DNA from: an uncultured Phycisphaerales bacterium
GTDB taxonomy: Bacteria; Planctomycetota; Phycisphaerae; Tepidisphaerales; Tepidisphaeraceae
Length of the DNA: 64,000 bases
NCBI GenBank assembly: GCA_963755915.1
Contig: CAVWLP010000002.1
Span: 1 to 64,000, forward strand
Direction of reading: 5' to 3'
The notes beneath the pieces were generated by a model. That model saw only the letters and a list, made by a program, of their open reading frames with translations, did not search any database and was not told the DNA's origin. The position numbers and the translations under genes were made by a program. This document shows positions 3,470-56,311 of this stretch, in pieces (the stretch's first letter is position 1; every line of letters starts with the position of its first letter).

Positions 3470-5125
3470 GGGGTGGACTCCCTTCGGCTCTGCTCAGGGC
3501 AGGCCTGTAAAGGTTGTGCGGCAGGCAAAGCCTCCGCTTGGGTGATTGCGTCGCGTACGAACTGTCCGTAATCGGCCAGTCCGCGGATGATTGGATGTTC
3601 CTGAACAAACTCGAAGTGTTGTTGAACCGGCGCGCCGTTTTGGTGTTCGATGAGCTGCCGCAGGGAGCGCAGGTGATACGCGCCATGCCCCAGAGCAATC
3701 TCGCAGGCTCGTTCCACGGCCGGTCGCGGCTGCTGATTGGCCAGCGACAGCAGCCCCATCAACACGCGCACGCCTTCGATGCCGCGATGCTGAAGCATTG
3801 ACTGCGCCCACTGCGTGGCGTGCGGCCCGATGCATTCGATCCGCTGGAGAAGCCAGGTCGTTCCACGCTCGATGCCGCTGATCTTCTCCGGCAGGATATG
3901 GGCGTCTTGCGTCGAGAACCTGCCCGGCGGACGCTGCGCGTGCAGAGCGATCGCACGCATCTTCTGATCGAACAGCCGGACCGTGCGCCGTCCCACCGCG
4001 CCCAGACCCGCTGGCCCAAAAACTCCGGCGGGACCGAATAGTACGCCCCCTTGATCTCCACGTGCCCGTCGCGGTGAACACTGCGCAACGCCTCGGTGAA
4101 AAGATCGAATCGCACCGGCGGCAGAGCCAACAGTGCCGGCTTCTCTACCTGCTCGAAGACTTCCTTCACCTGCCGCCGCGTCGTGCCGTGGATGCGCGTG
4201 TCGGCCACGCTCTTCTCCCACGTCAGCAGATGCGCGTTCTGATCCGAGAGCGAGGCGAATTGCCGGCCTTTGAGAGCATTGCTCTTCACATAGCCGATGC
4301 CCCGCTCGATCTTCCCCTTGTGCCGCGGCGTGTACGGCTTGGTGGGCAGAATGGCGATTCCATAATGTTCGGCGAACGACCGGACCTTGGGACACAACTC
4401 CGCCTCGAACCAGTCCGCCCGCGTCACCGCCGCGCGAAGATTGTCGATCACCAGCGCTGACGGCATCCCGCCGAAGTGCGTAAAGGCATTTTCCAGACAA
4501 CGCAGAAAATCATCGGTCGTCTGCCGCTCCACCGCCTCGGCGTACCCCTTGCGGCTGTGGCTCAGCACAATGCGGAAGACCCAGGTTGCTTTGCGTTTGC
4601 CGTCAGGACCGACCAGGGCGCACCCCGGCCGAAGTCCACCTGCGCCTCGGCTCCCGGCTCGCATTCCATCCGGCGCACGCTGTAATAGCTGCCGGCATAG
4701 CCGTGATCGCTGGAGATGTCTTGATAAATCCGCTGGGCCGTCAGCCCGGCTTCCAACTTCTGAACAATGACCTCACGCCAGGGCGATGCCGTACTGACCG
4801 ACCCGATGGGCGCGCCGGATAACCCGGTGGGCGCGCTCTCCGAGCCGCCTGCGGCGAGCACCGTCGAGCCGCCTGCGGCGAGCACCGTCGAGCCGCCTGC
4901 GGCGAGCACCGTCGAGCCGCCTGCGGCGAGCACCGTCGAGCCGAGGGCGCGCTGGCCGGTTTTGAATCCGATCCGGGCGCCGCAGGATCGCCGCCCGACA
5001 ACCGGATGTGGCGTCCAACGGTCTCCCGGTGAACGCCGAGTTGGCGGGCGATGTTCCGATTGGACCAGCCGCTGCGCAAGTGCCAAAATTGCTTGTACTT
5101 CCGCCATCTTGAGTTGATTGGCCAT
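3466..5125 (-). CDS. istA: IS21 transposase IstA (several frameshifts)
   Basis: PGAEAQVDFG, LVIDNLRAAV, PRHKGKIERG, RIHGTT and YYSVP motifs across overlapping ORFs. Confidence 0.9.
4842..4943. repeat. 24-bp perfect tandem repeat, 4.25 copies, inside istA
   Basis: Unit GAGCCGCCTGCGGCGAGCACCGTC starts at 4842, 4866, 4890 and 4914, with a partial copy at 4938. Confidence 0.95.
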
Positions 5126-6971: not shown

Positions 6972-8548
6972 CCCGGTGCCCGCAAAGAATCATCCGATTC
7001 CTTGCGGGCATCGTCGTTTATGTTCCAGTCGTCGTTTTTCTGCACCACACGCCCATCTGGAAGAACCAGCATCGGCCCGGCCACTTCCTCAATGAATCGG
7101 TTGAGTTGCGGCGGAGTGAGAAGCCCGGCAAAATTCTGCCGCGCTTCAAGGAACTGCGCTGCGGACATCCGCCAGCAGGCCATCTGAATTTGCGATCCCT
7201 CGAACCGCAACTGCTTCTAATGCCTCGCGCAACTGCTCCCGCTTGCTTTCCGCCTCGGCCATCTGCCGCGCGATCGACTTCTTGGCCAACGGCTCGATGT
7301 CGGGGTCGATCAATATTCGGCTCAGCCCAACAAGCAACTTATCCTGCTCGGCGATTTTCGCTTTGAGCCGGTCGGAATCGTTGCGGTTCAAGTCAAGCGT
7401 TTCCTTTGCCATCGCCGCCGCCTCGGCCAAAACAGCGTCCATGTCCTCGAACATCGCCGTCATGGCGCGTGTAACGCGGTCCATCAACTTGTCCTCTCGG
7501 ACGAACACGGAATTGGGGCAGGCTTCCGGCCCCTGCATTTGTCGTTTACCGCAACCGTAATAGTGATACTCGCCCTTGGTGTTCTTGCTCGTTCGGCAGT
7601 GGCAGACGTTTCCGCACTCGGCGCAGAATAAATGGCGCGTGAAGGGCCGCAGTTCCCTTGGTCCTCGCGGCCTTCGCTTGCCGTTTGCGGCAAATCGTTC
7701 TTGAACCCGGCCAAACATCTCATCGTCGATAATCCGCAAGGATTCATCCCGCTGCGTCAACTGGCTCGATTCCTCGTTGAAATGGGGGAGCCGTCGCCCC
7801 GTATCCCGATTCAATCGGAAGCAGCGGCGCAAGTATCGAACCTCACCCACTACCATTCGATTCGTCAGGATGCCGCGCAACGTCGTGAATTGCCACGGCC
7901 TGCCTAAGCGGGTTGGAATGTTTTTCTGGCGCAGCCGTCGGGCAAGCTCTTTCATGCCGATGCTCTCAGATAGGTAATTTGTAAACAAGAATCGAACGAC
8001 TTCCGCCTCCTCCGGCTGAATCGCCAGCTTCTTCTTTCCATCTGGCGCGGCAATGACCTGGTATCCATAAGGCGCTGGGCCTCCGGTCCAGCATCCTTCT
8101 TTGTGCCGCTGGATCAGGCCCCGCGCGTCCGCTCGGCCAATACGCGGCTGTAGTCAGCGGCAACCACCAGTTGCACGCCTCGCGCCAGCGCGTTCGTGCC
8201 TTCGGTGACGCTGACCACCTCCACGCCACACCGTTCCAAATCCTCCACCAGCACATGGGTTTCGGCGGCGCGCCCAAGCCGGTCGAACTTGTAGACGTAT
8301 AGCTTGCCAATCCGTCCGGCCTCGGCTTCCTGAATCAGCCGAAGCAATTCAGTCCGTCCCCCAGTGGTTCGACCGGTCTTGGCTTGGTCGATGAAGTGAA
8401 CCAGCTTTCGGGCCGCCATCCGCTCGCACGATTCAATCTGCACCGCGATACTGGTTGAATCGTCCTGGGAATGACTGGAGTACCGGGCATAAAGGGCGTC
8501 GTGCTTACCGCTCTCCTGATGATTGTTGATTGTCGCCACCATGGTCAT
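6929..8548 (-). CDS. Large serine recombinase (resolvase + recombinase + Zn-ribbon + coiled coil), frameshifts near 8115 and 7205
   Basis: ALYARYSS (catalytic Ser), DRLGR, GPAPYGY, LFCAECG...YYGC Zn ribbon; C-terminus IAGGGFEPPTSGL is read antisense through the tRNA fragment. Confidence 0.9.
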
Positions 8549-8891
8549 TGCTCCGATTGCGCTGTCTATATAGTTGTACGGCGCGTGCCGCGATCATCTC
8601 GACCAGCCATCGCCGCGCCTTGGCCCGGTCGAGCGTGAACATTTTACCATCGGGAGCATCGGAGGACCGGCGCCAGGGGAATATTTCGGCAAGGATTTTG
8701 TGGTCTGCGATTCGACGGCTGACACGACCCGCCTCCAGCGCGTAAGCGAAAGCGCCGACCTGTGCCGGTCGCCCGCGTAATAGCCGTATGGTAGATGTTA
8801 GGTATAGTCAAAGTCAATGTTATATTCCAAGGCATACGGGATTCCCCAGCCCATCGCCGGGCCTCCGGCTGCGATCTTCCGCCGCGCATTC

Positions 8892-9047
8892 TTCCCCGCT
8901 CCCGGCCCATAGCGGAAGGGTTTTTCTGCCGGGTCGGGGGTTGTCAATGTGGATCGCCCAGCGGGAGGGGTCCCCGTGTACTCACGGGGAGGGACATTGA
9001 CAACCCCTGGCACGGCACACAATCGAGCTATGGGCCCGGAGCGGGAA
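8892..9047. repeat. ~155-bp nested inverted repeat (long hairpin)
   Basis: TTCCCCGCTCCCGGCCCATAGC/GCTATGGGCCCGGAGCGGGAA; GGGGTTGTCAATGT/ACATTGACAACCCC; TCCCCGTG-TACT-CACGGGGA. Confidence 0.85.
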
Positions 9048-9139
9048 TCCCCAAGCTGCCTGCGCAGCAGTCCCTATTCTTCTGGTGTCTTTTCTGGAAT
9101 GGTCGGTATAATCGGCATCAAACAGGAGAAGGATTCAAC

Positions 9140-9391
9140 ATGGCAAAAGGCAAAAGCGCCACTCGCCCGTCCAAGCCGGATGATAAGCCCAAGACCCTCC
9201 AGCGAACCTACCGCTTCAACACAAAACTATTTGAGGCATTTGAAGACGACTGCGCTACTCACCTGTCAAACCCCAAGCGGGTCATAGAGGCGTTGATCCT
9301 TCACTGGCTGGATGCCGACAAAGACGACCGCGCCGCGATGGCGCACAAACACCGCGAACGGATCGGGTCCGCCTCCCGCGACGACGAATAA
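9140..9391 (+). CDS. Small putative ribbon-helix-helix DNA-binding protein
   Basis: AGGAG upstream; QRTYRFNTKLFEAFEDDC...PKRVIEALILHWL fits a strand-helix-helix pattern. Confidence 0.6.
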   Translation: MAKGKSATRPSKPDDKPKTLQRTYRFNTKLFEAFEDDCATHLSNPKRVIEALILHWLDADKDDRAAMAHKHRERIGSASRDDE

Positions 9392-9474
9392 AAATCTGTC
9401 CGGCGGTGTGGCGCAACGCGTAGGCGCATTGCTGCGCCGCAATTCCTGATTATTTGCCAAACAGGCTGGTGGAA

Positions 9475-9963
9475 TTATCTGGCGGGGTCTCTTTGGGCTG
9501 TTGTTTCAGCGGGCATGGGCGATCTGGCTCGGGTCTTGGCAGTGATTTGGGCGCTTCCTGCCTGCGCCGGGTCCATCACCGATCGTCGGTTACGGCGATT
9601 GGTCGCCAACGCATCCAGAAACACCTCAAATCGGTTGGCGGCGCTGGCCCACGCTGCATCCTTGTGTTCCGGCCTGACCGCCGGCGTGTGGCGAAGGAAC
9701 GTGCGCACATACATCGCCAACATCTCCCGGACCAGCTCATGCTGTGTCTGTTGGTCCTCATGCAGCTTTACCAGCCGATTGAAACAGCGGTCAACGGCCT
9801 TGAGCATGATTTGCTCCTGCTTCTCGCGGTATTCGGGCATCAGCGCTTGGCGGGCGGCATCTACAACGACTGAGCCAAGGGACGATCTGGTTAGTGTCGC
9901 CTGCACCTTGATGATCTTGAGCAACTCGTCGTCCAGCCGGATTGTCAGGGGATACTTATCCAT
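9475..9963 (-). CDS. CopG/RHH-family relaxosome accessory protein
   Basis: LTIRLDDELL...SLGSVVVDAARQAL N-terminus; TGATG overlap with the relaxase stop; resembles the RHH gene of Tn4371-type elements. Confidence 0.7.
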   Translation of the reverse strand: MDKYPLTIRLDDELLKIIKVQATLTRSSLGSVVVDAARQALMPEYREKQEQIMLKAVDRCFNRLVKLHEDQQTQHELVREMLAMYVRTFLRHTPAVRPEHKDAAWASAANRFEVFLDALATNRRNRRSVMDPAQAGSAQITAKTRARSPMPAETTAQRDPAR

Positions 9964-11504
9964 CAAAGTTCCTGGCCCATGTCCAAATCGCGACCCTGTT
10001 CCGTCGTGACATTGTTCACGTCCGTCATGCCGGTGGCCGCATCCCGGTCTGCTTGCTTGCCGATGAACTTCTCGAAGTCGGCAACATCGACTTCATAATC
10101 GCCGCCCTCCGCATGGGTGATTCCCGTGCCGGGCCTCCTGGCCCACGATTCGACTAAGCGCTCTGCTTTGTCCACCCTGTCGCGCGCCTCGTCCGATGTC
10201 GTATCACTGTCCGCGCGGTCAAGAAGGTGGTCGAGATGCTTGGTTGGGGAATAGATCCCATCGTTGGCCTTGGCTTGCTCGACGATCTCCTGCGCAATCT
10301 CTCGGCGCTCCTGCGCCGCCCTGCCAAGCTCCGCCACGTCGCCAATGCTCAAGGATTGATACGCCTCGCCGTCCTGGACGCGCGCATAGCGCATCGTTCC
10401 TGATTCCTCCCGGATGACAACAAAGCGCCGGTCGGTGATCTCATCGACCCGGCCCACGGCAACCACTTCACCGGATATGGCATGGTCAATCGGCTCCCTC
10501 GACACATACATGGACTGGTTCCCCAAGCTGCCGTAAAGCTGCTTGATGATGTCATGGTGCGCGCCCAGTTCCATCAACTGCCGCTTGAAGTCGGGGTCAA
10601 GCTGCCACTTCGTCCCTTGTATCTTCTCGGCCAATTCCATGCTCTCAAGCCATTGCAGGCGCGCAATCACCAGCGGCCTATCCGACCTTCGCCAGCCAAT
10701 CTGCACGTCCGGCGACACGTCGATGACGTGCTTCTCGTCCATGTTGCGCTCGATGGTCCGGTCCAATGATGTGAACCGCTCCGCCTGCACTTCCTTCTCT
10801 CGGGCCTGCTCCATCTCCCTTTCCGTACGTTCGCCAAGCAGGTCCGTCGCCGCCTCGGATGCCCTCTGCCGGATGCCGTAACCAATGTATTCCCGGCGCA
10901 GGATCAGGTCTTGACCCTGCTCGTCCTTTCCCCGGAACAAGATGTGCGCATGCGGATTGTCGGTGTTGTGGTGCTCGATAGCGATCCAATCGAGTTTGGT
11001 GCCAACATCGCGCTCGACACGCTGCATCACATCCCGCACATACGCGCGCATGTCGGCGATGTCATACCCCTTCTCCGGCGACAGGATGAGCCGAAAGTGA
11101 TGCCGATCCTCCTCCCATTCGCGTGTCACGGATCGACCATCCACCTTGTCTTGCTGCGCATCGAAGAACGTCCCGCGCTCCCCATTCTTGCTGGCGCTGT
11201 CGCGGGCAAGGTAGCCGGTATGGCGCGCCAGTCCGCTGCCGCTGCGCCGGGAATGGAACCGAGAAAGCATCTTGACCGTCGCTCGTTGTGCGCGGATTGC
11301 TGCCGAAAGGCATGGTTCCGCGCCCCTGAACCCGCCACGGCACGCGCCATCTGCGCGCATCTTGGTGCGCCAGAACCCGCGCCCGAGCCGCTTAGCGATC
11401 TCCCCGTTGACGCTCCGCTCGCGCCCTCTGCGTCCACCAGTGCGCCCAATGCGATCCGAATCAACGCCGTCTCTTGAATTCGACCGATTTGCACGTTTCG
11501 CCAT
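9963..11504 (-). CDS. MOBP/VirD2-like relaxase (DUF3363-type)
   Basis: HTGYLARD (catalytic Tyr), HHFRLILSPEKG, and WIAIEHHNTDNPHAHILFRG (HUH motif). Confidence 0.9.
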   Translation of the reverse strand: MAKRANRSNSRDGVDSDRIGRTGGRRGRERSVNGEIAKRLGRGFWRTKMRADGACRGGFRGAEPCLSAAIRAQRATVKMLSRFHSRRSGSGLARHTGYLARDSASKNGERGTFFDAQQDKVDGRSVTREWEEDRHHFRLILSPEKGYDIADMRAYVRDVMQRVERDVGTKLDWIAIEHHNTDNPHAHILFRGKDEQGQDLILRREYIGYGIRQRASEAATDLLGERTEREMEQAREKEVQAERFTSLDRTIERNMDEKHVIDVSPDVQIGWRRSDRPLVIARLQWLESMELAEKIQGTKWQLDPDFKRQLMELGAHHDIIKQLYGSLGNQSMYVSREPIDHAISGEVVAVGRVDEITDRRFVVIREESGTMRYARVQDGEAYQSLSIGDVAELGRAAQERREIAQEIVEQAKANDGIYSPTKHLDHLLDRADSDTTSDEARDRVDKAERLVESWARRPGTGITHAEGGDYEVDVADFEKFIGKQADRDAATGMTDVNNVTTEQGRDLDMGQEL

Positions 11505-14584: not shown

Positions 14585-15641
14585 CTAAAAACCGACCGGA
14601 TCGGAAATCGGGCTGGAACTGTGAACTTGCCGAAGAACATCCTTGGTGGTCATCGCCTCGCCATGGCCATCCGCAAACACCACATTCCCACCGAATGTCG
14701 ATCGAGTATTGCCAAGAATAAAATCGCTTTGCACGCGGTGACGAACCGCGAGCAACTCCGCTGTCGAGTTTTGCGACAGATATTCGATGGGATTTGGATT
14801 GAATAATCCATTGTGAATCGTGGATTCGTCTTCGTCTAATAACAATTCCACCTGCGATGCTGGGCGAATAGAGGAAATCTTCCCATTGTAATTATACCCA
14901 AATCTCTCATTATTGCCAAACAACGGCACGGTATAGCCTGGAGGCATTGATACGCCAATCGGCAAATTGCTATTATTTTTGTATCTATTGTTGTTCCAAG
15001 GCGGCAAATTGCGTCGGCGGTAACTTTCTCCCCGTAGCTTCGTCGTAGGAAGATGCGTACACAAGCGTCACGTAAATGTTAATCGAGTAGCTATAACGAT
15101 AGGCACCCTTTCCGGTTGGGTCAGTTGCCGGTCGATCCCACAAATTGTCCGAAGGGCAACGAAGTACGCTTGCAAGCATATCCGATTGGCTACTCAGGAA
15201 TGGTGCAATTGCAGAATCACTCAACGATTGAGCATATACCTGCGTACTACTAAATGAAGGCAATGTTACGCTTGCCGGATCAACGACGTTCGGATTTAAC
15301 ATTCCGCTAATTGGATCATGTTGCGCGTGCCAAGCAATCCAATCGAACGACGATTTGGCGTAAGACCCATCAATTGCCTCATATTCATTCGATCCACCAG
15401 CAGGCAATTGTCCACCGTTGTTCTGAGCATATTGAAATATCCCAAGAACAATCTGCCGCATGTTGTTAAGACAGACAGCGGCATTCGCCGACTCCCTAGC
15501 CCTCGACAATGACGGCAACAGCACTGATAATAATATGCCAATGATCCCGATTGACACCAATAGCTCGACTAACGTAAATCCAACGCCTCGCGATTGCGTC
15601 GAACGGCCGTCACAGCGAAGTTCAGGCAATTCAAGATTCAT
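14585..15641 (-). CDS. Prepilin-type N-terminal cleavage / DUF1559-like pseudopilin with H-X9-DG-type C-terminus (frameshift near 15050)
   Basis: GFTLVELLVSIGIIGILLSVLLPSLSRARESA...CLNNMRQI, LRCPSD, YSYSIN, GNVVFADGH. Confidence 0.9.
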
Positions 15642-15839
15642 GCGATTACGCTGCCCCTTGTCGAATGCTAATAATACACCATCATTCAATAATACAATAG
15701 AAGCATCTAGCCAACTTAAACGACTCTGGCGAGGATAATGAGATATCCTCACACGCGCCACTTACAGTAAGCGAATCAGTGGCCTGTCTCGCACAAACAT
15801 GGTTAATCGTGACTCTGCACACCTCATCAGTAACGGGCC

Positions 15840-16758: not shown

Positions 16759-17710
16759 TCAATTCGCAACATCGATGGCACGCTCTTTCCATCTATCCTT
16801 TGAGTTAAGAGCCTCGGAAAGCCAGGAGTAAAAATGAGACCCCGACTTCTGAGCATCCCTCCACGTCGCGACCGCCTCTGTCACCTTCGTGATTTGTTCT
16901 GCACTTCCTTCATCACGGACGACTGAAAGCAGCATCCAACAATAGATGCTAAAATCATTTTGAAACTCTTCGGCGCCCGATGTTCCCCCATATAAGTCTC
17001 TCAAAGCACCGAGGGCATTGGTGACGTATTCATCCTGAACCGGCTTTCCATCCTTGACGAGCGTATCTAACCATTCGATGAAACTGGAAAAGGTTGGGGA
17101 ATAAAAACTTCCGATGTTTTTCCGCTCGCCAACGGAAATTGTCTGTAACTCGTTAATTTGTTGATCGCTCAAATCAGCGAGGGTTGCGAGTTGGCTATCT
17201 GCCACGATATCTTCTAGGGTCGAGATGCCATCGGGGCCGCCGTCCTCTGCCGCCAAGAGAATGGCACCCCTGGCATGGAGATGAGCCATGGAAACAGCGC
17301 CTGACTTGGCGAGCACTTTTGCGCAGAAAGAGCAAGCTTGATATTGACGCCACATCTCGCGTTGAATGCATGGGCCAACCTATATCAAGGGAGCTATCAG
17401 AAGTTACCCGCAATTTGGAGAGAATCCACTTTCGCAGGGATCCTGGCACAAATCCTTGATTTAGCCCTATGGCCAAATGTTGTAACGCACCTTCGTAATC
17501 CGAGTCACCGAAGGTTAAACTGCGGTAAACTGAAATCATATAAGGTCGCAAATCCGTAAACGAGCGGGGCACTTGAAGCACATTTTGGACTGTCTCGCCA
17601 CAACCAATTTTCTCTCTTGATGCGTCATCCGCCCCAGCAGGTTGATTTAGAGCAAGCGCAAACATCAACATCAGCGAGAGCACCGAAATTTGCGACAACC
17701 GCTTCTCCAT
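16759..17710 (-). CDS. Hypothetical exported protein (frameshift near 17350)
   Basis: Signal peptide MEKRLSQISVLSLMLMFALALNQPAGA; ORFs 17195..17767 and 16759..17355 overlap. Confidence 0.6.
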
Positions 17711-17821
17711 ATTGCCTTCATCTCGGTTCACCGGCGGCGAATTACGTTTTTGTCGCACCGTGCTCATGCCGACGATCAGTCGTTTGCTGACCCACCGATG
17801 ATGCTGCGCTGGTAGTGCACA

Positions 17822-18364
17822 TCAAGAGGATGCGCTTTCACGTTGTTTTAACGCTTTCCGGTTCTTTTCGACGTTGGAATGACCGTGAACGACTATGCTT
17901 ATAATCGCAATGGAGAGTAATATAATCGCGCGAACGAGGGTAAACCACCCGATGCTTTGCTTTCCGATTCCGAAGCAGCCACAGTAAATATCCAGGTGGC
18001 GCAAGATCGCGGACGTGATAGCAAAAACAAATGCAGTTGAAAGACAAGTAGCCAGCACACTTGCCCCAGCAACCAAGGCGTCCGCAAGAAAACAAATCGC
18101 TATTATCACTTCGAGCCAAGGCAGGATTATCGCGATCAGCAGTGACAATCGCGGACCGGTCAATTGAAATCGGTATATGTCCTCGAGAAATCCAAAAGGC
18201 TCGAGCAACTTTGAGATCCCGCTAAGCAAGAAAACTCCCCCTAAAAACATCCGCAGCACGAGATTGGCCGCCTCCCGCAAGCGATTCGCTTGGGATTGCC
18301 CAGCGGGCGAATCACTTCCCATTTCAGAGACTAATCCGTAGCCGGATGAATTAGTCAGATTCAT
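17822..18364 (-). CDS. MauE/DoxX-family membrane protein
   Basis: LRMFLGGVFLLSGISKL, LPWLEV and the CGCFG motif; four TM segments. Confidence 0.9.
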   Translation of the reverse strand: MNLTNSSGYGLVSEMGSDSPAGQSQANRLREAANLVLRMFLGGVFLLSGISKLLEPFGFLEDIYRFQLTGPRLSLLIAIILPWLEVIIAICFLADALVAGASVLATCLSTAFVFAITSAILRHLDIYCGCFGIGKQSIGWFTLVRAIILLSIAIISIVVHGHSNVEKNRKALKQRESASS

Positions 18365-19460
18365 TTTTATTGTCTCTCCATTCTTGCCATCCCCCCGCGT
18401 ATATTCTGACGTCCTTGAAGCCTGCAGTCACGAATGCGGACGCAACGGATTTGCTAAAAGGACAGGTTGAACTCTGACAATAGACAACTATAGTTGACGT
18501 CACACTGGCGCCCCCCCTTTTAATGGCATCTACTCGAGCGTCATCGGAATAGTCAACAGGAATATTGATGGCTCCCGTGATATGGCCTAACGCGAAATCA
18601 TCGCTATGTCTTGCGTCTACAAAGATACAGTTCCCTTCCCGAAGGAGTCTCCTCGCTCCACTCAAGTTCGGCTGTGCCAGATCGTCGACGAAAAACGCCT
18701 TCGCCACCTGATCCGCAATCGGCTTTGAAGCCAGGAGCCCACCTACATGAAGGCTATGATATGTAACCGCCACGACTATCGACGCACAAATGACACAAAA
18801 GGCCTGGAGTTGAATCGATGGGTTGATTTGCCATCTCGTTTCTCTAGTCGCGTACTTAATTAGGAGGATCATGCATAAAGCAAGACAAACGGCTCCCGCC
18901 ACAGTGACTTTCATGCGCAACAGCAATCCGTCCGCATTGATTGGAGTCGAGGAGATGACTATACCATTTCCATCCCAGTAAGGAATGAAGTCATTAAACT
19001 TAATCGTCCTGAACGTATGTGGCGGATCAAATAAATCAATTTGGTCATTTCTGGTGCGAAGACAAAGCACGTAATGATTAAAATCCATTTCGGCCGGCCG
19101 AGACGCCACGTGAAGGATGACTGGATATTTGCAGTTACGCAGGAATTCCGCAGTTAAGTTACTGGCGGTGAGGGCGTATAAGCCGTGGTCCGCAGCAGCT
19201 TCCTTAATATCTTCCATCGAAGCTCCGTGATCATCTGGAATATATTTAGGAGTGAGCAGGTCTGCAAAGGGAATTTCCACGCCTTCTCGCAATCCTGCCG
19301 CGTAAAGGCAAAATATACCGCAGTACGGGGCATAGTCACGCACGCGGAATAGCTCCGCATCATCTGATGCTACTGCTTGATTCCTACCGCCGAACAGAAT
19401 TGCAACAATGGCGGCAACTCGGCCCATAGCTCCCAATGCATGAATTCGATGATACCCCAT
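18351..19460 (-). CDS. Peptidase C39-like domain + two TM helices + rhodanese domain fusion
   Basis: PYCGIFCLY (catalytic Cys), GASMEDI, PVILH, HYVL...LFDPP, YWDG; then FVDAR...GHITGAINIP...VVYCQSSTCPFS...YAGGWQEW. Confidence 0.85.
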   Translation of the reverse strand: MGYHRIHALGAMGRVAAIVAILFGGRNQAVASDDAELFRVRDYAPYCGIFCLYAAGLREGVEIPFADLLTPKYIPDDHGASMEDIKEAAADHGLYALTASNLTAEFLRNCKYPVILHVASRPAEMDFNHYVLCLRTRNDQIDLFDPPHTFRTIKFNDFIPYWDGNGIVISSTPINADGLLLRMKVTVAGAVCLALCMILLIKYATRETRWQINPSIQLQAFCVICASIVVAVTYHSLHVGGLLASKPIADQVAKAFFVDDLAQPNLSGARRLLREGNCIFVDARHSDDFALGHITGAINIPVDYSDDARVDAIKRGGASVTSTIVVYCQSSTCPFSKSVASAFVTAGFKDVRIYAGGWQEWRDNKNESD

Positions 19461-19471
19461 GGGTTTTCCCT

Positions 19472-20773
19472 TCAAATTCGCGTCCCGTTTCGGCTCCGGA
19501 GCGACTTTGTAAAAAGAGCGATTGCGACCAAAAGCCCGCACCCAAGAAGGATGCAAATCATAGTGACGTAGGGATTTGTCGATCGGAAAACAGGGCTAAT
19601 CACTACTGGCTCTGCCAATGCGTGGCCATTCTGCTGCACCGTCGTAGCGATATTTGCGATTGAACTTGGAGAGGGCTCATGCGCGGTCGGCGGCGGCAAT
19701 TTCTCCGCCGAAGAATCTGATCCTATATCAGAATGGTAGATTTCAGCCTTTATTTGGTCCAGAACGGCGGGATCCATGTACGGAACGGCCTTGCCTTGCT
19801 TCCATATATAGTTAATAGTCCGCGTTTTGGCATCCTCCATAATGACTCTGCTGCCTTCCGCCGCGTCCGAAGGCGCGAATATATTCGGGTTGGCCGCGAA
19901 GTCAGGGTTCAGCTCTATCGAGTTTCGGTGCGCAACAATCTTCTGATCAAGCAAATAGTCGCCGTACTTGCTGTGACTCTCGTAACGACCTTGTAACATC
20001 ACCGCGTTGCTGCCGGTGGTCCCAAATGTCACACTGTCTAAAGTGAACCCCACATAACTATCTGGTGTGCGAGAGAAATCCGGTTCGAGCGTGCCCTTTG
20101 CTGGCAAATAGCCGTTCGATGGAGACAGCCAAAGCGACAGCTTACCCCAGGTTGTATTCGTGGTGACCAAACAGCATTGAACTCCATCTACCGTTTGAAA
20201 CTTTGGGTCAATTCGGGAGGATCCCCCCCGTATCATTTTGACTAGAGTTGTGCCGGTGCCATTCCCCAGATCAACGTATCCGTCAAGATAGGCGCCAGTG
20301 CGTGCCGCTAGCACCACCTCGTCTCGGAACTCGGCAAAATGTGCCTGGTCAGTGTGAATTTGAATCTCTTTGACCGCGCTATTAAAATAAAACCAATCGC
20401 TTCCCGAGAGAATCTTTTCTTCAGTATGTGGCGGCAACACAACCCCGTTTGCCGAATATTGGTGAAAATCGAATTTGAGGTGAAATCGGCCGTCGGCCGC
20501 CATGTACCGTTCAACAGTAGCTTCCGTCACATCCTTTACAGGCCTGGTCCCAGGATATGCAATATCAGACTGAACTTCTAGCTTTGAAGCCGAGTTAGCC
20601 ATGAGGGAAAATGACTGCTCCATCTGGTTGATTGCGGCATCGAGCGACGGAAACGTCTGCCCAAATGTATATTTGCAAAAGATCAAACACCCTGAGACAG
20701 CGACAGCTATCACTACATGCCTCGGAATAATTGGGCGCAAACCGAATCGTTTTGATCCGTTCTGCGTGGCCAT
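19472..20773 (-). CDS. Hypothetical exported, C-terminally membrane-anchored protein (LolA/sorting-like pattern)
   Basis: N-terminal hydrophobic segment, VDGVQCCLV...LWLSPSNGYLP, C-terminal TM helix with basic tail. Confidence 0.65.
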   Translation of the reverse strand: MATQNGSKRFGLRPIIPRHVVIAVAVSGCLIFCKYTFGQTFPSLDAAINQMEQSFSLMANSASKLEVQSDIAYPGTRPVKDVTEATVERYMAADGRFHLKFDFHQYSANGVVLPPHTEEKILSGSDWFYFNSAVKEIQIHTDQAHFAEFRDEVVLAARTGAYLDGYVDLGNGTGTTLVKMIRGGSSRIDPKFQTVDGVQCCLVTTNTTWGKLSLWLSPSNGYLPAKGTLEPDFSRTPDSYVGFTLDSVTFGTTGSNAVMLQGRYESHSKYGDYLLDQKIVAHRNSIELNPDFAANPNIFAPSDAAEGSRVIMEDAKTRTINYIWKQGKAVPYMDPAVLDQIKAEIYHSDIGSDSSAEKLPPPTAHEPSPSSIANIATTVQQNGHALAEPVVISPVFRSTNPYVTMICILLGCGLLVAIALFTKSLRSRNGTRI

Positions 20774-21320
20774 CCTAAAAATATCGCGTATGATCAAGTC
20801 TACTCCGATTGTTATGAAGTTAGCCGTCGACAAGAATTCTAAGGCCGTTGGAATTAGCCTCCTCTTCCATCAATCAAGACAACAAGTCGGCTACATTTCG
20901 GAGACAAGTGCCAGCGCATGGGCTAAAATCGCGAGGTCGTTCTTGTACTTTAAAACCATGCGCTGGCACATTTGCCGAAATACATGCCTGTCTCTGGTAT
21001 CAGCAATTTCTCCTCTGACTATCAACTGGAGCATCGCGAAGATCAATAGTCCCAATTCTGCTGCTGATACTGTGCATAGTTGCCAGCCAGAGATGGCTTC
21101 GCTCTGGCATCAATTTGAGGACTACCCCTGGCACGAATAGCCCTGTGCTTCAGTTTGACAGCCGGGGCAACTTTGACTGCCAGCTCCTTCGCTCTGACAG
21201 GTCTTGCCGTTTCCACTCTTGTCATTGCTGCACGCACCTACTGTCATGTTTTCGCAGCCTGTGCCACAATTTCCACTACTATTAGTACAGCCTGTATTAC
21301 CACCAGCACCGCCGCGAACA

Positions 21321-22710
21321 GAGCTATAACCGAAAGTCGTGGATGGTTGGCGGCTGAATAAAAGCGGCGTACCTTCGGTGGATCGTGACTCAACGGTTCA
21401 CCAGCGTCCCACGCGGGACAGAAAGGATACGCCTCATGGACAGTAACTCATTTCAGATGCACCTGGCAACGGTGCCGGTCATCGATGACATTCTTCGCGA
21501 CGGCGCCCGCCGGGCGTTGCAGTCGGCCATCGAGCGGGAAGTCGACGAATATATCCAGCGTAACCGCCAACAGGTCGACGATAGCCGGCCATCGCCTGGT
21601 CGTCCGCAACGGCCATCATCCAGCCCGGAAGATTCAGTCGGGCAACGGCGCCGATCGAGGTGCATCAGCCGCGGGTGAACGACAAGCGGGTCGATGAGCA
21701 GGGCAACCGCATCCGCTTTACTTCCAAGATTCTTCCGCCGTATCTGCGCAAGACCAAGGCCATCGAGGAATTGGTGCCGTGGCTCTATCTGAAAGGGATT
21801 TCCACCAGCGATTTTCCCGAAGCGCTGGGTTGCCTGGGCCACGACGGCTCGGGCCTGTCGCCCACCACCATCGTTCGGATGAAAGAAGTCTGGCAAGGTG
21901 AATACGAGAACTTCTGCCGGCGGTCGCTGGAAGGCAAGCGATACGTTTACCTGTGGGCCGACGGCATTTACTTCAACATCCGCCTGACCGATGACCGGCC
22001 CTGCGTGCTGGTTTTAATGGGCGCTTTGGAAGATGGGACCAAGGAACTGATCGCCATGATCGACGGCCAGCGCGAAAGCGAGCAGAGCTGGCTGGAACTG
22101 CTGCTGGACGCCAAGAGTCGCGGGCTGACGCGAATCTCCGAAGCTGGCCACCGGCGACGGGGCGCTGGGATTCTGGAAGGCCCTCAAGCAGGTCTATCCC
22201 AGGAACCCGCACGCAGCGCTGCTGGGTTCACAAGACGGTGAACGTGCTGGACAAACTGCCACGCGGCCAGCAGGTGTCGGCCAAGAAGATGCTGCACGAG
22301 ATCTGGATGGCGGCGACGAAGGAACAGGCCATCAAGGCGCTGGGGAAGTTCGCGGCCACGTACCAGGCCAAGTTCCCCAAGGCGGTGCGAATGCCTGCTG
22401 AAGGACCAGGAGGAACTGCTGGCGTTCTACGACTTCCCCGCCGAACACTGGCAGCATCTGCGCACCAGCAACCCGATCGAAAGCACGTTCGCCACGGTGC
22501 GGTTGCGAACCTACAAAACCAAAGGCGCCGGCTCGCGAACCGCCTGCCTGGCGATGGCCTTCAAACTCGTGGAGTCAGCTCAGAACCATTGGCGAAAACT
22601 CAACGGCAGCGCGTTGCTGCCGGAGGTCATTGCAGGAGTGATCTTCAAAGATGGAACGAAACTCGCCGCTTGAAGCTGTCGCGGCCATCCACTACTTTTG
22701 GGAATATCTC
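21321..22710 (+). mobile_element. IS256-family insertion sequence (1390 bp)
   Basis: IRs GAGCTATAACCGAAAGTCGTGGATGG / GAGATATTCCCAAAAGTAGTGGATGG; 9-bp TSD CCGCGAACA at 21312-21320 and 22711-22719. Confidence 0.95.
21436..22673 (+). CDS. IS256 transposase (frameshifted)
   Basis: VVRNGH, SKILPPYLRK, LYLKGIST, YLWADGIY, QRCWVHK and FPAEHW..LRTSNPIESTF motifs. Confidence 0.92.
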
Positions 22711-23202
22711 CCGCGAACATCCGCAGGTGCTGAACCGGACGTCATAGCGTAAAACGCTATGACTATGGCCACAATCATTGGAGAAACTACTTTTGCGACG
22801 CGATCCAAGGTAAAATTGCTCATAAGAGCTCCTAGGGTAAAATGTCTCTACGTAATTGGCTATTCTTCTGCGTGTTGCCGCCTTGACCGACGGTTGGAAT
22901 TTAATGTTGACGCCGCATCGGGATGCCATGCAAAAAGCGACGGCGATCAAATTTTAATGGAACAAAATGACGAACTTCAAAAAAAGAATCCCAAGATACC
23001 AACGTACGGCGGTCCAAACCCGTTAGTAAGGCCTGAGATTCATTCAGGAAACCTCCTTTCCAATTCGCATCATTGCCGTCAACTCAGCCTCGTAACCGAC
23101 TAAACCAAAGATGTGAGTTGAATCTATCTGTTCCGGAATCATCCATTTTTATACCATTCCTATTTCCTGCACCAGCAGACCTTAGCTGAAGCCTCCTAAA
23201 GA

Positions 23203-24294
23203 CTAGTTGGCAAGCGCTCGCTGGACTCGAAAAGCCGTACGAATACTTGCCTCAAAGGACGGGTGGACGTGACGGATATACTCCTTAAAAAACTTATTCG
23301 CCTCCGACCCTCGTCCAAGACAACATAGATCGTCGATAAGGAAACCCCAAACGCCACCTTCGTACATAAAATTGTCGTCCCCAACGCAAGTCATCAAAAG
23401 CGGAATCGCCTCGGTGTATCGAGCTTCCTGACTTAATTCCATGGCATAAATAAGAGCCCAAACCTTTGGTTTTTCTCCTGTCCTCTGCATTTGTGACGAC
23501 CGCAAGCTTTCTAGCAGGGCGTGCGAATCATCAGTGCGGCCCATAATGTATAAGAGCTCGCCCAGCCCCGGCTTGCAATCTCTGGCCGCCTTGACCACAT
23601 CGGGATCGTCCGGCGACGCCCATCGAATTAAATTGGTATATATGCTACAAAGTGAGACAGCATAGGGCGTACCCCCATGTTGTTGAATGCAATCCCATAC
23701 TACATCCTTGAGGTCTTGCTTGTCGTGCGCAATAGCGAGAAGGACCAAGCTGCGGCTGGCTGGCGTTGCGTTCGCGCTATTTAGCTCTTTATCCACACGG
23801 CTAGCGATTGCGTCGTAAAACAGAAGGCTAGTTACGTCGTCCTGCGACACAGAATGAAATGCGGGAGCAATTTTGATCAAAGAGAGGGACGAAAGACCAG
23901 AGTTCGAAAGAATTTCTGAGAGATCACCTTGCTCCTGCACGCTTACTGATCGGCCCATTGACCTATCACTTTTCCATCGTTCAAGCCAGCTCACCAGCTT
24001 CGGATCTGGACTATCGACTGCACGAGCGATTAAAACCGGATCCCGAAGATCAGCTTCGGATGCAGGTGGAATTTCCACCCGCTCAACTATTTGCGCCCTA
24101 TGCCGGAATACGAATTCGCTAACTAAGATCGCCACCGCAATAGACGAAAACCCTAGTACAATGAAAGCTGTACCAACCCTACTAGAGGTGAAAAAGCGTT
24201 TAAAAGGCGATTTTCCCATCGCTACCGCCATCGCAAGGATTTGAATCTCGCTGCTTATGTAGTGGCAGCATGTCATGCTTTGAGAATTTGTCAA
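23203..24294 (-). CDS. Hypothetical membrane-anchored helical (TPR-like) protein
   Basis: 363-aa ORF with an N-terminal TM helix and C-terminal TPR-like helices (LGELLYIMGRTDDS, RYTEAIPLL). Confidence 0.6.
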   Translation of the reverse strand: MTNSQSMTCCHYISSEIQILAMAVAMGKSPFKRFFTSSRVGTAFIVLGFSSIAVAILVSEFVFRHRAQIVERVEIPPASEADLRDPVLIARAVDSPDPKLVSWLERWKSDRSMGRSVSVQEQGDLSEILSNSGLSSLSLIKIAPAFHSVSQDDVTSLLFYDAIASRVDKELNSANATPASRSLVLLAIAHDKQDLKDVVWDCIQQHGGTPYAVSLCSIYTNLIRWASPDDPDVVKAARDCKPGLGELLYIMGRTDDSHALLESLRSSQMQRTGEKPKVWALIYAMELSQEARYTEAIPLLMTCVGDDNFMYEGGVWGFLIDDLCCLGRGSEANKFFKEYIRHVHPSFEASIRTAFRVQRALAN

Positions 24295-24929: not shown

Positions 24930-25095
24930 CTTTTGACCACACTGACACAGTTGCAGCAGCAGGAAGACCGCCTGCTCAACCTCCGTCTACTGGAGGAAAC
25001 CAGTACCGACACGTTTGCGAAGAAGAGCACCGAACTGCGTGACCGGATTGCCGACGTAGCGCTCAAAATGGATGCGACGAACCGCGACCGGTTGA
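24930..25095 (+). pseudogene. Fragment of a serine recombinase coiled-coil region
   Basis: QQEDRLLNLRLLEETSTDTFAKKSTELRDRIA resembles C-terminal regions of planctomycete recombinases (recognised from memory, not searched). Confidence 0.5.
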
Positions 25096-25257
25096 TTTGT
25101 ACTGGCGGATTCTCTCGGTAAAATGATGACTGCCATCCACGGCTAACTGCGCTGGCGGTGTCGCAGCCCAGTCGATATTTTTGATTTCCCATTCGGACTT
25201 TTGTCGGAGACCGTTTGGATCCCAAAAAGACTCTCCGATAGAGAAGGAAACAACACC

Positions 25258-26864
25258 ATGCGTAGAACATCTGATTTCATGATGGCAGCATTGCTCGCTG
25301 CGCTCATGCTGAACCAGCCCATTGCTCAAGCCCAGGATAAGCCCGCCGCGCCGCCACGCAATCCGTTCATGGCGCAGTCCAACAACTGCATTGCGCACGG
25401 CAACTCGGCGCAGACCGATTCGACCGTCGATCCCGGTCCGGTCGGGCCGACGCGCACGCTGGGCGCCGACGAGGTGCGTTACCACGATCTCGGGATGTTC
25501 AATCTGCCGTACCTGATCTCCGGCCCTTACCCGGACGGCAAGCGCGTCGTCTGGACCAACGGCACGCAGTTCCTGGCCAAGATGGACTATGACAGCTACG
25601 ACGTCATCGCCCAGCTGCGCCTGCCCGGCGACGATCACGCCGACACGCTCACGCACGAGAACTTCATCAAGGCGCTCGATGCCGACGTGCCTTTCAAAGA
25701 GAAGTTCGAGACGGCGAAGAAGTCCGGCGACCCTGCGCTCTACGGCATCTACACGCTGATCGACAAGGACAACCAGTACGTCGTCGCGGGCAAGGGATTC
25801 GTCCGCGTATATGGCGACGCTGTCGAGGGAGACCGCAACTCGGGCATCGTCGTCAAAGCGAATTGGGATCAGCCCAAAGAGATTGGCGGCACGTTCATCG
25901 GCATGAACATGACGTTCGACGGCCGAATCATTCTGGCGACGACCGACGGGCACATCATCGCGTTGTCGCGCGATTTCAAGGACGTGAAGACCGTGCGGCT
26001 GCCCAACGCCGAAGCGGAGTTGGCGGTGCAGCCCAAGGGCGTGGACTGGATCCGCAACAGCTTCTGCATCGACGAGAAGGGCGGCATCTACGTCCCGTCG
26101 CAGAATCACTTGCACAAGGTGATCTGGACGGGCGAGAAGCTCTCCGTCGACGAGAAGGACGGCGCGTGGACGGAGCCCTATCGCAACTCGCTGGGGCGCG
26201 GCTCCGGCGCCACGCCGACGCTGGTCGGGTTCGGCGACGAGCCGGACAAGCTCGTCGTTCTCACCGATGGCGACACGCTCATGAACGTGACCGCCTATTG
26301 GCGCGATGAGATTCCGGCCGGCTGGAAGCAACTCGACGGCGCGCCGTCGCGCCGGATCGCCGGTCTGCAACCCGCCACCTTCGGCGATCCAAACCGCAAG
26401 GCTGCGCAGTCCGAGCAGTCGATGGTCTGTTCCGGCTACGGCATGTTCGTGGTCAACAATGAGCCGCGCAACGTGCCGCAGGAAATCCTCGACGACCCGC
26501 GCGCAAGATCGTGTTCCTCGGCTATCTCAGTTACCTGAAAGACTACCAGCCGTTCGGCGGTGAGAAGTTCGAGTGGGATCCGAAGACCAAGACGCTCAAG
26601 TCGGCCTGGACCAACACCGAGATCAGCTCGCCGAACTGCGTCCCGTTCGTCTCGACCGGATCGAACATGGTGTACGTTTCGGGTGCTCGCGACAACCAGT
26701 GGACGCTGGAAGGGATCGACTGGACGACGGGCAAGAGTACGTTTCATTACATTCTGGGCGGGGCGCGATTCAACAGCTTCTATTCGCAGCCCGTGATCGA
26801 CATGGACGGGCGGGTCATGGTCAGCGGCCTCTACGGGGCGATGCGGATTCAGCCCAAGAAGTAA
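25258..26864 (+). CDS. Exported hypothetical protein, probable beta-propeller (frameshift near 26510)
   Basis: Signal peptide ending AQA; strong GC3 codon bias; ORFs 25201..26538 and 26511..26864 overlap. Confidence 0.8.
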
Positions 26865-56301: not shown

Positions 56302-56311
56302 AAATCTCCTT

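Follow-up and report, generated by a model that had tools for sequence, protein, structure and literature searches.

An insertion sequence appears to split the gene for an exported Cys-rich peptide in a planctomycete C39 peptidase-rhodanese-MauE cassette

The processing of double-glycine leaders is a cytoplasmic step coupled to ABC export, and the leaders themselves carry a hydrophobic residue at position -4, with further periodic hydrophobic residues in a short amphipathic leader. The peptidases of these systems (the PCATs ComA, PCAT1, and LahT; class II bacteriocins and microcins) share a C39 Cys-His(-Asp) center, by profile, with the peptidase described here, and in both settings a G-[G/A] junction, in the cassettes mostly with a hydrophobic residue at -3 or -4, stands directly before the core and the precursor gene lies beside the peptidase gene. 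PCAT systems have an ABC transporter, whereas the cassettes considered below have none, and their peptidase carries its own predicted Sec signal and is joined to two transmembrane helices (2TM) and a rhodanese domain. PCAT leaders also differ from the cassette precursors in having no Sec-type hydrophobic segment, and while cleavage is coupled to export in PCAT systems, export in the cassette would precede cleavage. Another parallel is FapD of the Pseudomonas Fap amyloid system, a Sec-exported, periplasmic, and active C39 peptidase which, like the C39 domain in our locus, stands outside an ABC transporter, according to the available portion of the article, which also quotes an 'lv-x-GG' leader consensus (PMC5557850). 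In that portion, FapD is a soluble protein with neither a rhodanese fusion nor a MauE partner, the system it belongs to makes amyloid, and its substrate is given as unknown, whereas the cassette has an adjacent candidate substrate with a conserved junction. The fusion protein in our locus scores 19.2 bits against the FapD model of NCBIfam (NF058616), for which the cut-off is 330.

Methylamine dehydrogenase has a Cys-rich small subunit whose maturation involves MauE and MauD. As in that system, MauE in the cassette sits beside a small Cys-rich candidate substrate that would be exported; the MauD/thioredoxin-fold partner, however, is missing, and a predicted periplasmic rhodanese with a C-x4-C loop is found in that place. 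In E. coli, MauE has been shown to replace DsbB via a CXC site (consensus CGC-F-G) located in the helix 3-helix 4 loop, as a recent preprint describes; the words rhodanese, C39, and Planctomyc* are missing from its main text (bioRxiv 10.64898/2026.03.05.709764). Candidate MauE-containing RiPP clusters have also been put forward in Streptomyces by decRiPPter, as prediction only, in which mauE homologues are found outside any mau operon, next to a predicted precursor having eight or more Cys residues (PMC7794033). Those clusters are Actinomycete, and the part of that article at hand is silent on C39-rhodanese fusions, LolA-fold proteins, and GG junctions. The literature searched yielded no account of a cassette combining C39, MauE, and rhodanese, nor of such peptides in Planctomycetes; the cassette is undescribed in that literature, and its precursors are unnamed in databases.

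The cassette in the window, by which we mean the whole 64,000-nucleotide stretch of DNA analyzed, has the order precursor, predicted LolA-fold membrane protein X, C39 peptidase-2TM-rhodanese fusion, and MauE. Its first gene is a minus-strand ORF into which an IS256-family element has inserted, and the two resulting pieces were translated separately in silico. The 5' part (22711-22823, minus strand) runs for 37 codons from an ATG at 22823 down to 22713, includes a hydrophobic segment, and ends in A-D-V-R; the GG dinucleotide that follows opens the next Gly codon. The 3' part (P0001; 21122-21320, minus strand) reads from 21319, begins with V-R-G-G, continues into a 61-residue Cys-rich core, and has its stop at 21122-21124. 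In silico removal of 21321-22719 leaves a single open frame of 100 codons with the terminal stop as its only one, and an RBS-like AGGAG (22829-22833, minus strand) stands 5 nt upstream of the ATG. The in-frame ORF of 100 aa with an RBS that the preliminary description had proposed is thereby recovered, as is its leader, with a hydrophobic stretch reaching V-R-G-G, and its 61-aa core with eight Cys residues. In the restored protein the hydrophobic N-terminus precedes V-R-G-G, R-G-G occupies residues 37-39, and the core (G14, C8, S8, N6, T6) has the anticipated Cys spacing of 6, 3, 7, 10, 9, 2, and 8. Upstream of the gene, one promoter-like site (22980-22951, minus strand) carries no weight; the promoter and terminator scan returned counts at the shuffled expectation (8 vs 6.7 and 7 vs 8.2).

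Members of the IS256 family have terminal inverted repeats and produce an 8-9 bp target duplication. The element in the window (21321-22710, 1,390 bp, transposase on the plus strand), assigned from its target duplication, inverted repeats, and Pfam content, is bounded by a left repeat of 26 nt (21321-21346) that is 81% complementary to the right repeat with which it pairs (22685-22710). The 9-bp target duplication that had been claimed is a perfect one, with CCGCGAACA at 21312-21320 on the left and again at 22711-22719 on the right. A Mutator-type domain (Transposase_mut, PF00872, Mutator/IS256-type, E 1.4e-21), a length of 1.39 kb, the imperfect 26-nt repeats, and the 9-bp duplication are all in keeping with the family; the broken transposase frame is not. 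A tblastn search with an annotated Streptomyces IS256 transposase covers reference residues 16-406, and relative to that intact protein the frame is interrupted at at least four places (tblastn frames 2, 3, 1, 3, 1), so that the element has no uninterrupted ORF of ∼400 aa. Single bases at 21581/2, 21653, 22132, and 22388 are missing from related metagenome copies; the breaks may reflect decay of the element or, since other genes in the assembly are also split, sequencing or assembly error. The best eight listed nucleotide matches, on Streptomyces/Kitasatospora plasmids, are 65-67% identical over 72-74% of the length, and six of the eight are annotated as IS256 family transposase. There is one copy of the element in this assembly, and its G+C content is 0.61-0.63 vs 0.47-0.53 in the flanks. 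In four soil/peat metagenome runs, the matching contigs (90-99% alike) extend over 21321-22710 only and leave the flanks at zero depth, and their unrelated loose ends start exactly at 21321 and 22710, which independently supports the element boundaries.

One reading of the split frame is that the element landed in noncoding DNA and that the restored ORF arose by chance. Its low-complexity composition would suit this, as would the database results for P0001, which found no candidate homologue in an index of 5.8 billion proteins (35-114 aa range) and no paralogue in the same genome, where the only other match had an E value of 0.66. The exactness with which a 100-codon frame with RBS and ATG is restored argues otherwise, and so does comparison with 20 other loci having a C39-rhodanese gene. 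In 14 of these, an intact small ORF with the common plan of a signal-like segment, a G-[GA] junction, and then 6-10 Cys residues lies upstream, in the same position and on the cassette strand. In another (G006), the precursor is frameshifted. A clear precursor is missing from the remaining five, namely, three G488 loci, which have at most a Cys-rich ORF with no recognizable signal or GG; G450, where the sole candidate has four Cys residues and is near a contig end; and G028, where none was found and the C39 domain lacks the catalytic Cys and His. Among the 1,188 ORFs (60-170 aa) that 265,811 bases contain, a strict architecture rule picks 13: 12 of these precursors and a second, tandem precursor in G023. 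No such ORF is picked elsewhere in those bases. All eight Cys residues are invariant between the precursors of G010 and G470, which are 44% identical and whose junction changes from GA to GG. These observations make a chance ORF extremely improbable. The preliminary description had let its case hang in part on orthologous clusters containing a similar small GG/Cys-rich ORF, and the position- and strand-matched ORFs in relatives decide that test in its favor. It had also held that gene callers would miss the precursor, which applies to the split copy in the window but not to three intact relatives present in the protein database as hypothetical proteins. A profile built from the 14 precursors recovered only those three of its own members.

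Gly is the commonest residue in the core of the window precursor (14/61), so a GG pair in one sequence means little and the case for a cleavage junction rests on comparison. An unguided MAFFT alignment of the 14 intact precursors places one invariant Gly in all of them, with G next in 11 and A in three; over the set of 15, Gly is at -2 in every precursor, and -1 is G in 12 and A in three. A G-[GA] pair at most eight residues before the first core Cys occurs in 14/15 precursors vs 2.0 expected from shuffles, and the same pair with a hydrophobic residue at -3/-4 occurs in 13/15 vs 0.5 expected. V, I, or L is at -4 in 10/15, and the farther leader positions have no clear periodic pattern. Each of the 15 has a hydrophobic 13-mer (mean hydropathy 1.7-2.9), and the linker from the hydrophobic segment to the junction is kept at 10-20 residues. 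Related pairs in these counts (G010/G470 and G015/G471) are not independent; the precursors are otherwise 13-30% identical and barely alignable. An AlphaFold2 model of the G010 precursor (14 rows, pLDDT 49.8) has only the hydrophobic helix modeled and carries no information on how the Cys residues pair. A lipoprotein precursor was considered and rejected: a lipobox Cys directly follows the hydrophobic segment, whereas the first core Cys comes at least 15 residues past that segment in the window copy and, over the whole set, 0-6 residues beyond the Gly pair.

The same sequences bear on whether the product is an ordinary Sec-secreted Cys-rich protein, cut by signal peptidase I, with the Gly pair merely beginning the mature chain; the C39 domain would then have a different target, be it X, its own chain, or an unlinked protein, or would serve only as a binding module. 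The N-terminus of the window precursor resembles a classical signal peptide, and its A-P-A, five residues ahead of the GG, is followed by D-V-R-G-G. This A-x-A element resembles a signal peptidase I site and could be one, in which case cleavage there would leave only a five-residue stub for C39. Small residues also come soon after the hydrophobic segment in several relatives, the core is Gly-rich, the FapD substrate is still unknown in the portion of PMC5557850 available, and noncatalytic C39-like domains exist, the G028 copy without Cys and His being a case in point. A plain signal peptide, however, would not need the conserved 10-20-residue linker. Precursors that are otherwise 13-30% identical share the G-[GA] junction and its hydrophobic residue at -3/-4, an arrangement confined to the cassette position in the bases scanned, and the 15 fusions beside such precursors keep the catalytic Cys and His without exception. 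We consider signal peptidase cleavage unlikely as the whole account, and favor GG cleavage of the precursor, as suggested by the conserved junction. The Sec-type hydrophobic core does count against our explanation in one respect, since it makes the leader other than a canonical double-glycine leader.

The fusion gene (18351-19556, minus strand) likely starts at M33 (19460). Its C39 domain matches PF03412 with 37.5 bits (cut-off 22) over residues 79-204, and its rhodanese domain matches PF00581 with 64.2 bits (E 1.6e-17). The window protein keeps the catalytic Cys (in Y-C-G), His, and Asp, and its rhodanese loop reads C-Q-S-x-x-C. In an alignment of 15 fusions, C36, G37, and H118 are invariant and D134 is conserved in at least 90%; the rhodanese Y-C-(Q)-S-x-x-C shows no or almost no variation, with C318 invariant and a second invariant Cys five residues on. 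A profile of the fusion finds the solved double-glycine peptidase domains of ComA (E 4e-8), PCAT1 (5e-7), and LahT (3e-4), and its Cys-Gly aligns with Ala-Gly in chain 7n87_A. As judged by eye and with a hydropathy script, the window fusion and its homologues have a Sec-like N-terminus and a basic loop joining the two helices, and the signal-like N-terminus includes an A-V-A element. The Sec-type signal and the positive interhelix loop would place the C39 and rhodanese domains both outside the cytoplasm, and both soluble domains are thus predicted to face the periplasm. Between the precursor and MauE, the cassettes examined have no ABC gene. The order of events proposed previously, with export first and cleavage afterward, is in keeping with the Sec-type signal, the predicted periplasmic C39 domain, and the lack of an ABC exporter.

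MauE (17822-18364, minus strand), a MauE/DoxX-family membrane protein, matches PF07291 with 85.2 bits (E 6e-24) and has C-G-C-F-G at residues 128-132, between hydrophobic segments that end at 122 and start at 136. MauE adjoins the fusion in 6/6 of the first loci, in 2/2 phylum matches, and in 9/12 further loci, and the CGCFG motif is found in the window protein and in 14 of 17 cassette MauE matches; in the remaining three, the alignment stopped short of the motif or none was given. A four-disulfide core had been suggested for the window peptide. The adjacent MauE strengthens that idea, the disulfides themselves being predicted, but 8 of 15 cores have an odd number of Cys residues and so not every member can have all of its Cys residues in disulfides.

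This odd count, which pure disulfide pairing does not explain, would fit a cassette that handles sulfur or metal rather than maturing a peptide. Here the rhodanese would exchange persulfide sulfur with a Cys-rich carrier or metal-binding peptide, MauE would serve to balance redox state, with the peptide retained in the envelope in a cofactor-like role. Rhodaneses are classically sulfurtransferases, and the best solved matches for this rhodanese domain are thiosulfate sulfurtransferases; its NCBIfam equivalogs all score far below cut-off, the best being redox-type rhodanese (seleno)proteins. That rhodanese domains are normally sulfur carriers and not disulfide carriers also counts against the explanation we favor. 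The active-site loop of a sulfurtransferase is, however, usually closed by a basic or hydroxyl residue, which the C-Q-S-x-x-C loop does not have, and the residues of an active protease are retained. Cassette occurrence is patchy and copies are struck by IS elements, which, together with the variable cores, fits an accessory, fast-evolving secreted product better. We regard sulfur or metal handling as decidedly improbable, and the cassette probably trims and disulfide-bonds Cys-rich peptides outside the cytoplasm, as far as its gene content indicates.

Gene X (19472-20833, minus strand; likely start 20770, 432 aa) is kept between the precursor and the C39 gene in relatives. The protein has an N-terminal signal-like segment and a C-terminal membrane helix with a basic tail. 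Sequence searches against solved structures gave nothing meaningful (best E 0.16), and only 3 of 61 members of the X family match DUF2092. In the structure, which is predicted with confidence (pLDDT 84.1), the top Foldseek matches are LolA, LolB, and RseB, including LolA3 (9tp6, E 9.9e-9, target TM 0.46) and E. coli LolA (1ua8, TM 0.56), with RseB and MucB also among the matches. The model agrees with the open beta-barrel fold of the LolA/LolB/RseB superfamily, to which we assign X on this predicted structure. On the other side of the precursor, a gene listed at 363 aa (23203-24294, minus strand) has one N-terminal membrane helix and no Pfam family match; its homologues precede the precursor in four relatives (G010, G006, G508, and G532).

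Taken together, these data make it fairly probable that the window holds an IS-inactivated gene for an exported Cys-rich peptide and that this gene heads a conserved cassette. In the mechanism we propose, the hydrophobic N-terminus of the precursor would direct Sec passage and hold the peptide in the cytoplasmic membrane. The membrane-tethered, periplasm-facing C39 domain would then cut after hydrophobic-x-G-[G/A], 10-20 residues past the hydrophobic segment, and so release a core of ∼60 residues. MauE, a DsbB-like quinone-linked oxidase with a CGC site, would drive the formation of disulfides in the core, four of them in the window copy, with the periplasmic rhodanese and its invariant C-x4-C loop as a possible redox intermediary. 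X, with its predicted lipid- or peptide-binding LolA-type cavity, may deal with the product or with the anchor left behind, perhaps as a carrier or in self-protection. Our leading guess for the product is an antagonistic, bacteriocin-like peptide. The interpretation given in the preliminary description is supported at the level of sequence. That Sec export of signal-anchored precursors, release by a membrane-tethered, double-glycine-type C39 peptidase in the periplasm, oxidation by a dedicated MauE with a rhodanese rather than a thioredoxin-fold partner, and escort or self-protection by a LolA-fold protein make up a previously undescribed route to disulfide-rich ribosomal peptides is a tentative proposal, whose chance of being correct we put slightly short of half.

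In this genome, the precursor gene itself is, in our judgment, rather probably a genuine gene that encoded a small, exported Cys-rich peptide and has been inactivated. The insertion probably also blocks transcription into the downstream cassette genes; with the precursor split and downstream transcription likely blocked, there is reasonable ground for regarding the cassette as off. A congeneric genome likewise has an inactivated copy, and the IS-split copy here along with that broken cassette indicates dispensable accessory equipment. The precursors evolve too fast for sequence searches to link them and can be found only by context and architecture; the architecture rule (signal, G-[GA], and Cys framework) recovers them with no false matches in 266 kb.

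The cassette makes the question of what periplasmic C39 enzymes cut directly testable, through an adjacent candidate substrate with a cut-site motif. FapD, the one studied periplasmic C39 peptidase, has no known substrate in the available portion of its report (PMC5557850); if our reading is true, the fusion would give the periplasmic C39 peptidases their first member for which a substrate and a cleavage motif can be identified. MauE, recently reported to be a general DsbB-like oxidase, would be tied to a dedicated small substrate, and the cassette suggests that it may have a partner outside the thioredoxin family, a rhodanese with a C-x4-C loop. If true, the cassettes would also constitute a new source of hypervariable knotted mini-proteins in Planctomycetota.

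On the minus strand of 21122–22823, a small gene lies in two halves with an insertion sequence in between. The 5′ half begins with the ATG at 22823, encodes a hydrophobic stretch, and in translation ends in A-D-V-R; the 3′ half (P0001, stop at 21122–21124) starts with V-R-G-G and continues into a Gly/Ser/Asn/Thr-rich sequence with eight Cys residues. Both copies of the 9-base target duplication, CCGCGAACA, are perfect (21312–21320 and 22711–22719). Scripted excision of 21321–22719 in silico gives one open frame of 100 codons, comprising 39 residues through the Gly pair and, after it, a core of 61 residues with Cys spacings of 6, 3, 7, 10, 9, 2, and 8; an AGGAG is located 5 bases ahead of the ATG. 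The preliminary description had proposed exactly this duplication, frame, ribosome-binding site, leader, and eight-Cys core, and since excision and translation reproduce each one, all of its details are correct. The precursor gene in the window is dead, split by an IS256-family element. The split gene is confirmed as an observation, and its reading as a precursor is supported by the comparison with relatives.

The element (21321–22710, 1,390 bp) is bounded by 26-nt inverted repeats with 81% complementarity and has a G+C content of 0.61–0.63 versus 0.47–0.53 in the flanks; it encodes a Mutator/IS256-type transposase (PF00872, E 1.4e-21). Its DNA is 65–67% identical to the eight best places listed, on Streptomyces and Kitasatospora plasmids, six of which are annotated as IS256 family transposase. 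Metagenome contigs from four soil and peat runs, 90–99% alike, span 21321–22710 alone, with a depth of zero on either flank, and their unrelated continuations begin precisely at 21321 and 22710, so that the ends are independently supported. These close relatives sit in other sequence contexts in the soil and peat contigs; this means that in habitats of this kind the family is widespread or active, though the element is single copy in the 6.6-Mb, three-contig assembly. Relative to an intact IS256 transposase, the coding sequence is spread over frames 2, 3, 1, 3, and 1, and single bases are absent from related metagenome copies at 21581/2, 21653, 22132, and 22388. The element looks like a decayed copy, a reading on which we do not rely. 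Assembly indel errors are possible because completeness by marker genes is 81%, despite the three contigs, and other genes in the window are split between frames. One ORF pair (17195–17767 and 16759–17355, ∼190 codons each) overlaps out of frame, and a DUF1559/prepilin-type gene is split into 14985–15761 and 14585–15064, with the H-X9-DG C-terminal piece in the other frame; pilin-like genes with DUF1559 and H-X9-DG are associated with Planctomycetota. Either real pseudogenes or assembly indel errors would account for these pairs, which bear on how the transposase frameshifts are interpreted. The insertion event itself, with its perfect target duplication, is not in doubt.

Downstream of the precursor, on the same minus strand, are the genes for protein X (19472–20833), a C39 peptidase–rhodanese fusion (18351–19556), and MauE (17822–18364; PF07291, E 6e-24). 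The fusion, which most likely starts at Met33, matches Peptidase_C39 over residues 79–204 (37.5 bits against a cut-off of 22) and Rhodanese over residues 302–395 (E 1.6e-17). It opens with a Sec-type signal, made up of a basic start, a hydrophobic core of short length, and A-V-A; the C39 domain, two hydrophobic helices, and the rhodanese domain follow, a layout also seen in the aligned fusion homologues. The loop joining the two helices abounds in Lys and Arg, and from the positive-inside rule, applied by eye and with a hydropathy script, both soluble domains are predicted to face the periplasm. The C39 Cys-Gly and His do not vary across 15 aligned fusions, conservation of the Asp is 90% or higher, and the rhodanese loop Y-C-(Q)-S-x-x-C shows little or no variation. 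The fusion profile matches solved double-glycine peptidase domains (ComA, E 4e-8; PCAT1, 5e-7; LahT, 3e-4). In the window MauE, C-G-C-F-G lies between the third and fourth hydrophobic segments. MauE adjoins the fusion at 6/6, 2/2, and 9/12 loci in three locus sets, and in relative G507 it is located upstream of the precursor.

Protein X belongs to no Pfam family and has a signal-like N-terminus, a C-terminal membrane helix, and a basic tail. An X-like gene occupies the gap between precursor and fusion in the listed relative loci, mostly with the same helix and tail; the window X as a tblastn query detects it in 8 of 20 loci. The family has 243 representatives at E ≤ 0.001 in a library of 1.84 billion proteins, and its Pfam signal is near nil, with DUF2092 matched in 3 of 61 members. 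The fold predicted from a 61-row alignment (pLDDT 84.1, pTM 0.73) matches structures of LolA, LolB, RseB, and MucB (best E 9.9e-9, target TM 0.46–0.56). On the strength of this confident model and these matches, X is predicted to be a periplasmic protein, anchored in the membrane, whose open barrel is of the LolA type, the kind of fold that accommodates acyl chains or exposed peptide segments. Any role assigned to X in the cassette would be a guess. The gene upstream of the precursor (23203–24294) encodes one membrane helix and belongs to no family; homologues lie upstream of the precursor in G010, G006, G508, and G532, and the matching G010 ORF gives weak TPR hits.

Few genomes carry the full-length fusion: it turned up in 6 of 40 relatives and in 16 of 140 other genomes of the order, every one from a single family and 2 of them among the 12 others in the window's own genus. 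A phylum-wide sample of 400 genomes yielded 2, the remaining matches there being to rhodanese only or to membrane helices plus rhodanese. For the precursor comparison we used 20 loci with wider DNA, excluding the fragmentary G507:C132, G022:C294, G507:C567, and G531:C101. An intact upstream ORF of ∼96–127 codons on the same strand is present in 14 of them (G010, G470, G023, G022, G015, G471, G261, G108, G507, G508, G532, G502, G519, and G489). Each encodes a hydrophobic N-terminal segment, often directly followed by Pro, a linker of ∼10–20 residues ending in G-G or G-A, and a core of 56–80 residues with 6–10 Cys. In the congener G006 the same gene is present with signal and core in different frames. 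No clear precursor was found at the other five of the 20 loci. The best that three G488 loci offer is a Cys-rich ORF lacking a recognizable signal or junction, and at one of them the contig ends just 2 kb upstream; G450 has only a four-Cys candidate, with A-L-R-G-G, close to the contig start. The G028 locus (L023, G028:C16, 6364–9373) yielded no small Cys-rich ORF; the catalytic Cys and His are missing from its C39-like domain, and the rhodanese domain and adjacent MauE are kept. By eye, a 581-codon ABC-type-transporter-like ORF lies upstream there. Most of the orthologous clusters compared do carry a similar small GG/Cys-rich ORF, as the preliminary description anticipated, and the comparison supports its interpretation of the split gene.

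Since the cores are rich in Gly, chance controls were run on the junction. Unguided MAFFT alignment of the 14 intact precursors gives a Gly column without exceptions, the next residue being G in 11 and A in 3, although the sequences, one close pair excepted, are 13–30% identical to the first aligned sequence. When each of 15 sequences was randomized past its hydrophobic segment, G-[GA] within 8 residues before the first Cys was expected in 2.0 and observed in 14; when −3 or −4 also had to be hydrophobic, the expected count fell to 0.5 against 13 observed, numbers that are somewhat generous owing to related pairs. A strict rule requiring signal, junction, and Cys framework selected 13 of 1,188 ORFs (60–170 codons, both strands, 20 loci plus the window, 265,811 bases): 12 precursors and a second small ORF just upstream of the G023 precursor, with no other ORF passing in this set. 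That 70-codon ORF (L018, G023:C95, 9412–9624, minus) encodes a signal-like segment followed by I-G-G and a tail rich in Cys, and looks like a tandem second precursor. Between the G010 and G470 precursors (44% identity), all eight Cys and the post-junction residues are retained, with I-R-G-A at the junction of one and V-T-G-G in the other.

Gene order, domain content, catalytic and redox residues, and the conserved junction are direct observations; the route they suggest is that Sec would export the precursor, whose hydrophobic segment would anchor it in the membrane, that the neighboring periplasmic C39 domain would cut after the Gly pair, and that the core Cys would be oxidized through MauE, possibly by way of the rhodanese C-x4-C loop. 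According to a 2026 preprint (bioRxiv 10.64898/2026.03.05.709764), two MauE proteins substitute for DsbB in E. coli, activity needs a periplasmic CXC motif with the consensus C-G-C-F-G, and MauE is expected to act via an intermediary, usually of the thioredoxin family; the words rhodanese, C39, and Planctomyc* are absent from that main text. FapD was shown to be a Sec-exported, periplasmic, catalytically active C39 peptidase, of a class that its authors call yet to be characterized, with its target unclear (Rouse et al. 2017, PMC5557850). Precedent for pairing mauE with a Cys-rich precursor comes from decRiPPter, which predicted three cluster families in Streptomyces that combine mauE homologues with precursors containing eight or more Cys (PMC7794033).

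Three points weigh against this route and feed the two main rivals, a plain Sec-secreted protein cut by signal peptidase I and a sulfur- or metal-handling cassette. In the window precursor, A-P-A lies five residues N-terminal to the Gly pair and could plausibly be cut by signal peptidase I; the Cys count is odd in 8 of 15 cores; and the usual cargo of rhodanese domains is sulfur rather than disulfides. The conserved junction and the invariant C39 Cys and His speak against the signal-peptidase rival.

Patchiness, fast change on a fixed framework, tandem precursors, a mobile setting, and repeated inactivation are typical of antagonistic secreted peptides. In the same-order survey the cassette is patchy, and the 14-precursor alignment shows very fast change around the fixed Cys and junction framework. 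That the product is a bacteriocin-like or other antagonistic secreted peptide is possible, if somewhat improbable. Mobile genes surround the cassette at 2579–4500, 7146–7988, 9963–11504, and 55390–57472, namely two IS21-type pairs (IstB 2579–3469 and 55390–56361; rve 56312–57472), a serine recombinase, and a relaxase of the MobA/VirD2 type that carries DUF3363; an integrated mobile island may include the window's first 30 kb. Long ORFs without a Pfam match lie on both strands of 25000–26600 (G+C 0.57–0.66), at 25063–26370 (minus) and 25201–26538 (plus); this stretch may be of foreign origin or represent a further element. In G006, an IS3-family element (L021, G006:C5, 8060–9405; HTH_Tnp_1 ORF 8060–8326, rve ORF 8332–9405) lies between the X and C39–rhodanese genes, in place of the N-terminal third of the C39 domain. 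Together with the frameshifted precursor, this means that the cassette was broken independently in a second congeneric genome; G010 alone looks intact among the three cassette-bearing genomes of the genus.

No curated family covers the precursors. The intact ones are labeled "hypothetical protein", and the fusion is automatically labeled "rhodanese-related sulfurtransferase". A search of full-text literature, largely outside subscription journals, returned nothing on the MauE/C39/rhodanese combination, on Cys-rich C39 peptides of Planctomycetes, or on periplasmic double-glycine C39 cleavage with disulfides. Every part of the cassette comes from a known family; what the literature searched does not describe is how these parts are arranged, or the order of events this implies, with Sec export first, cleavage at the Gly pair outside, and a dedicated MauE. 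The local gene is dead; what makes it notable is the family of cassettes to which it leads.
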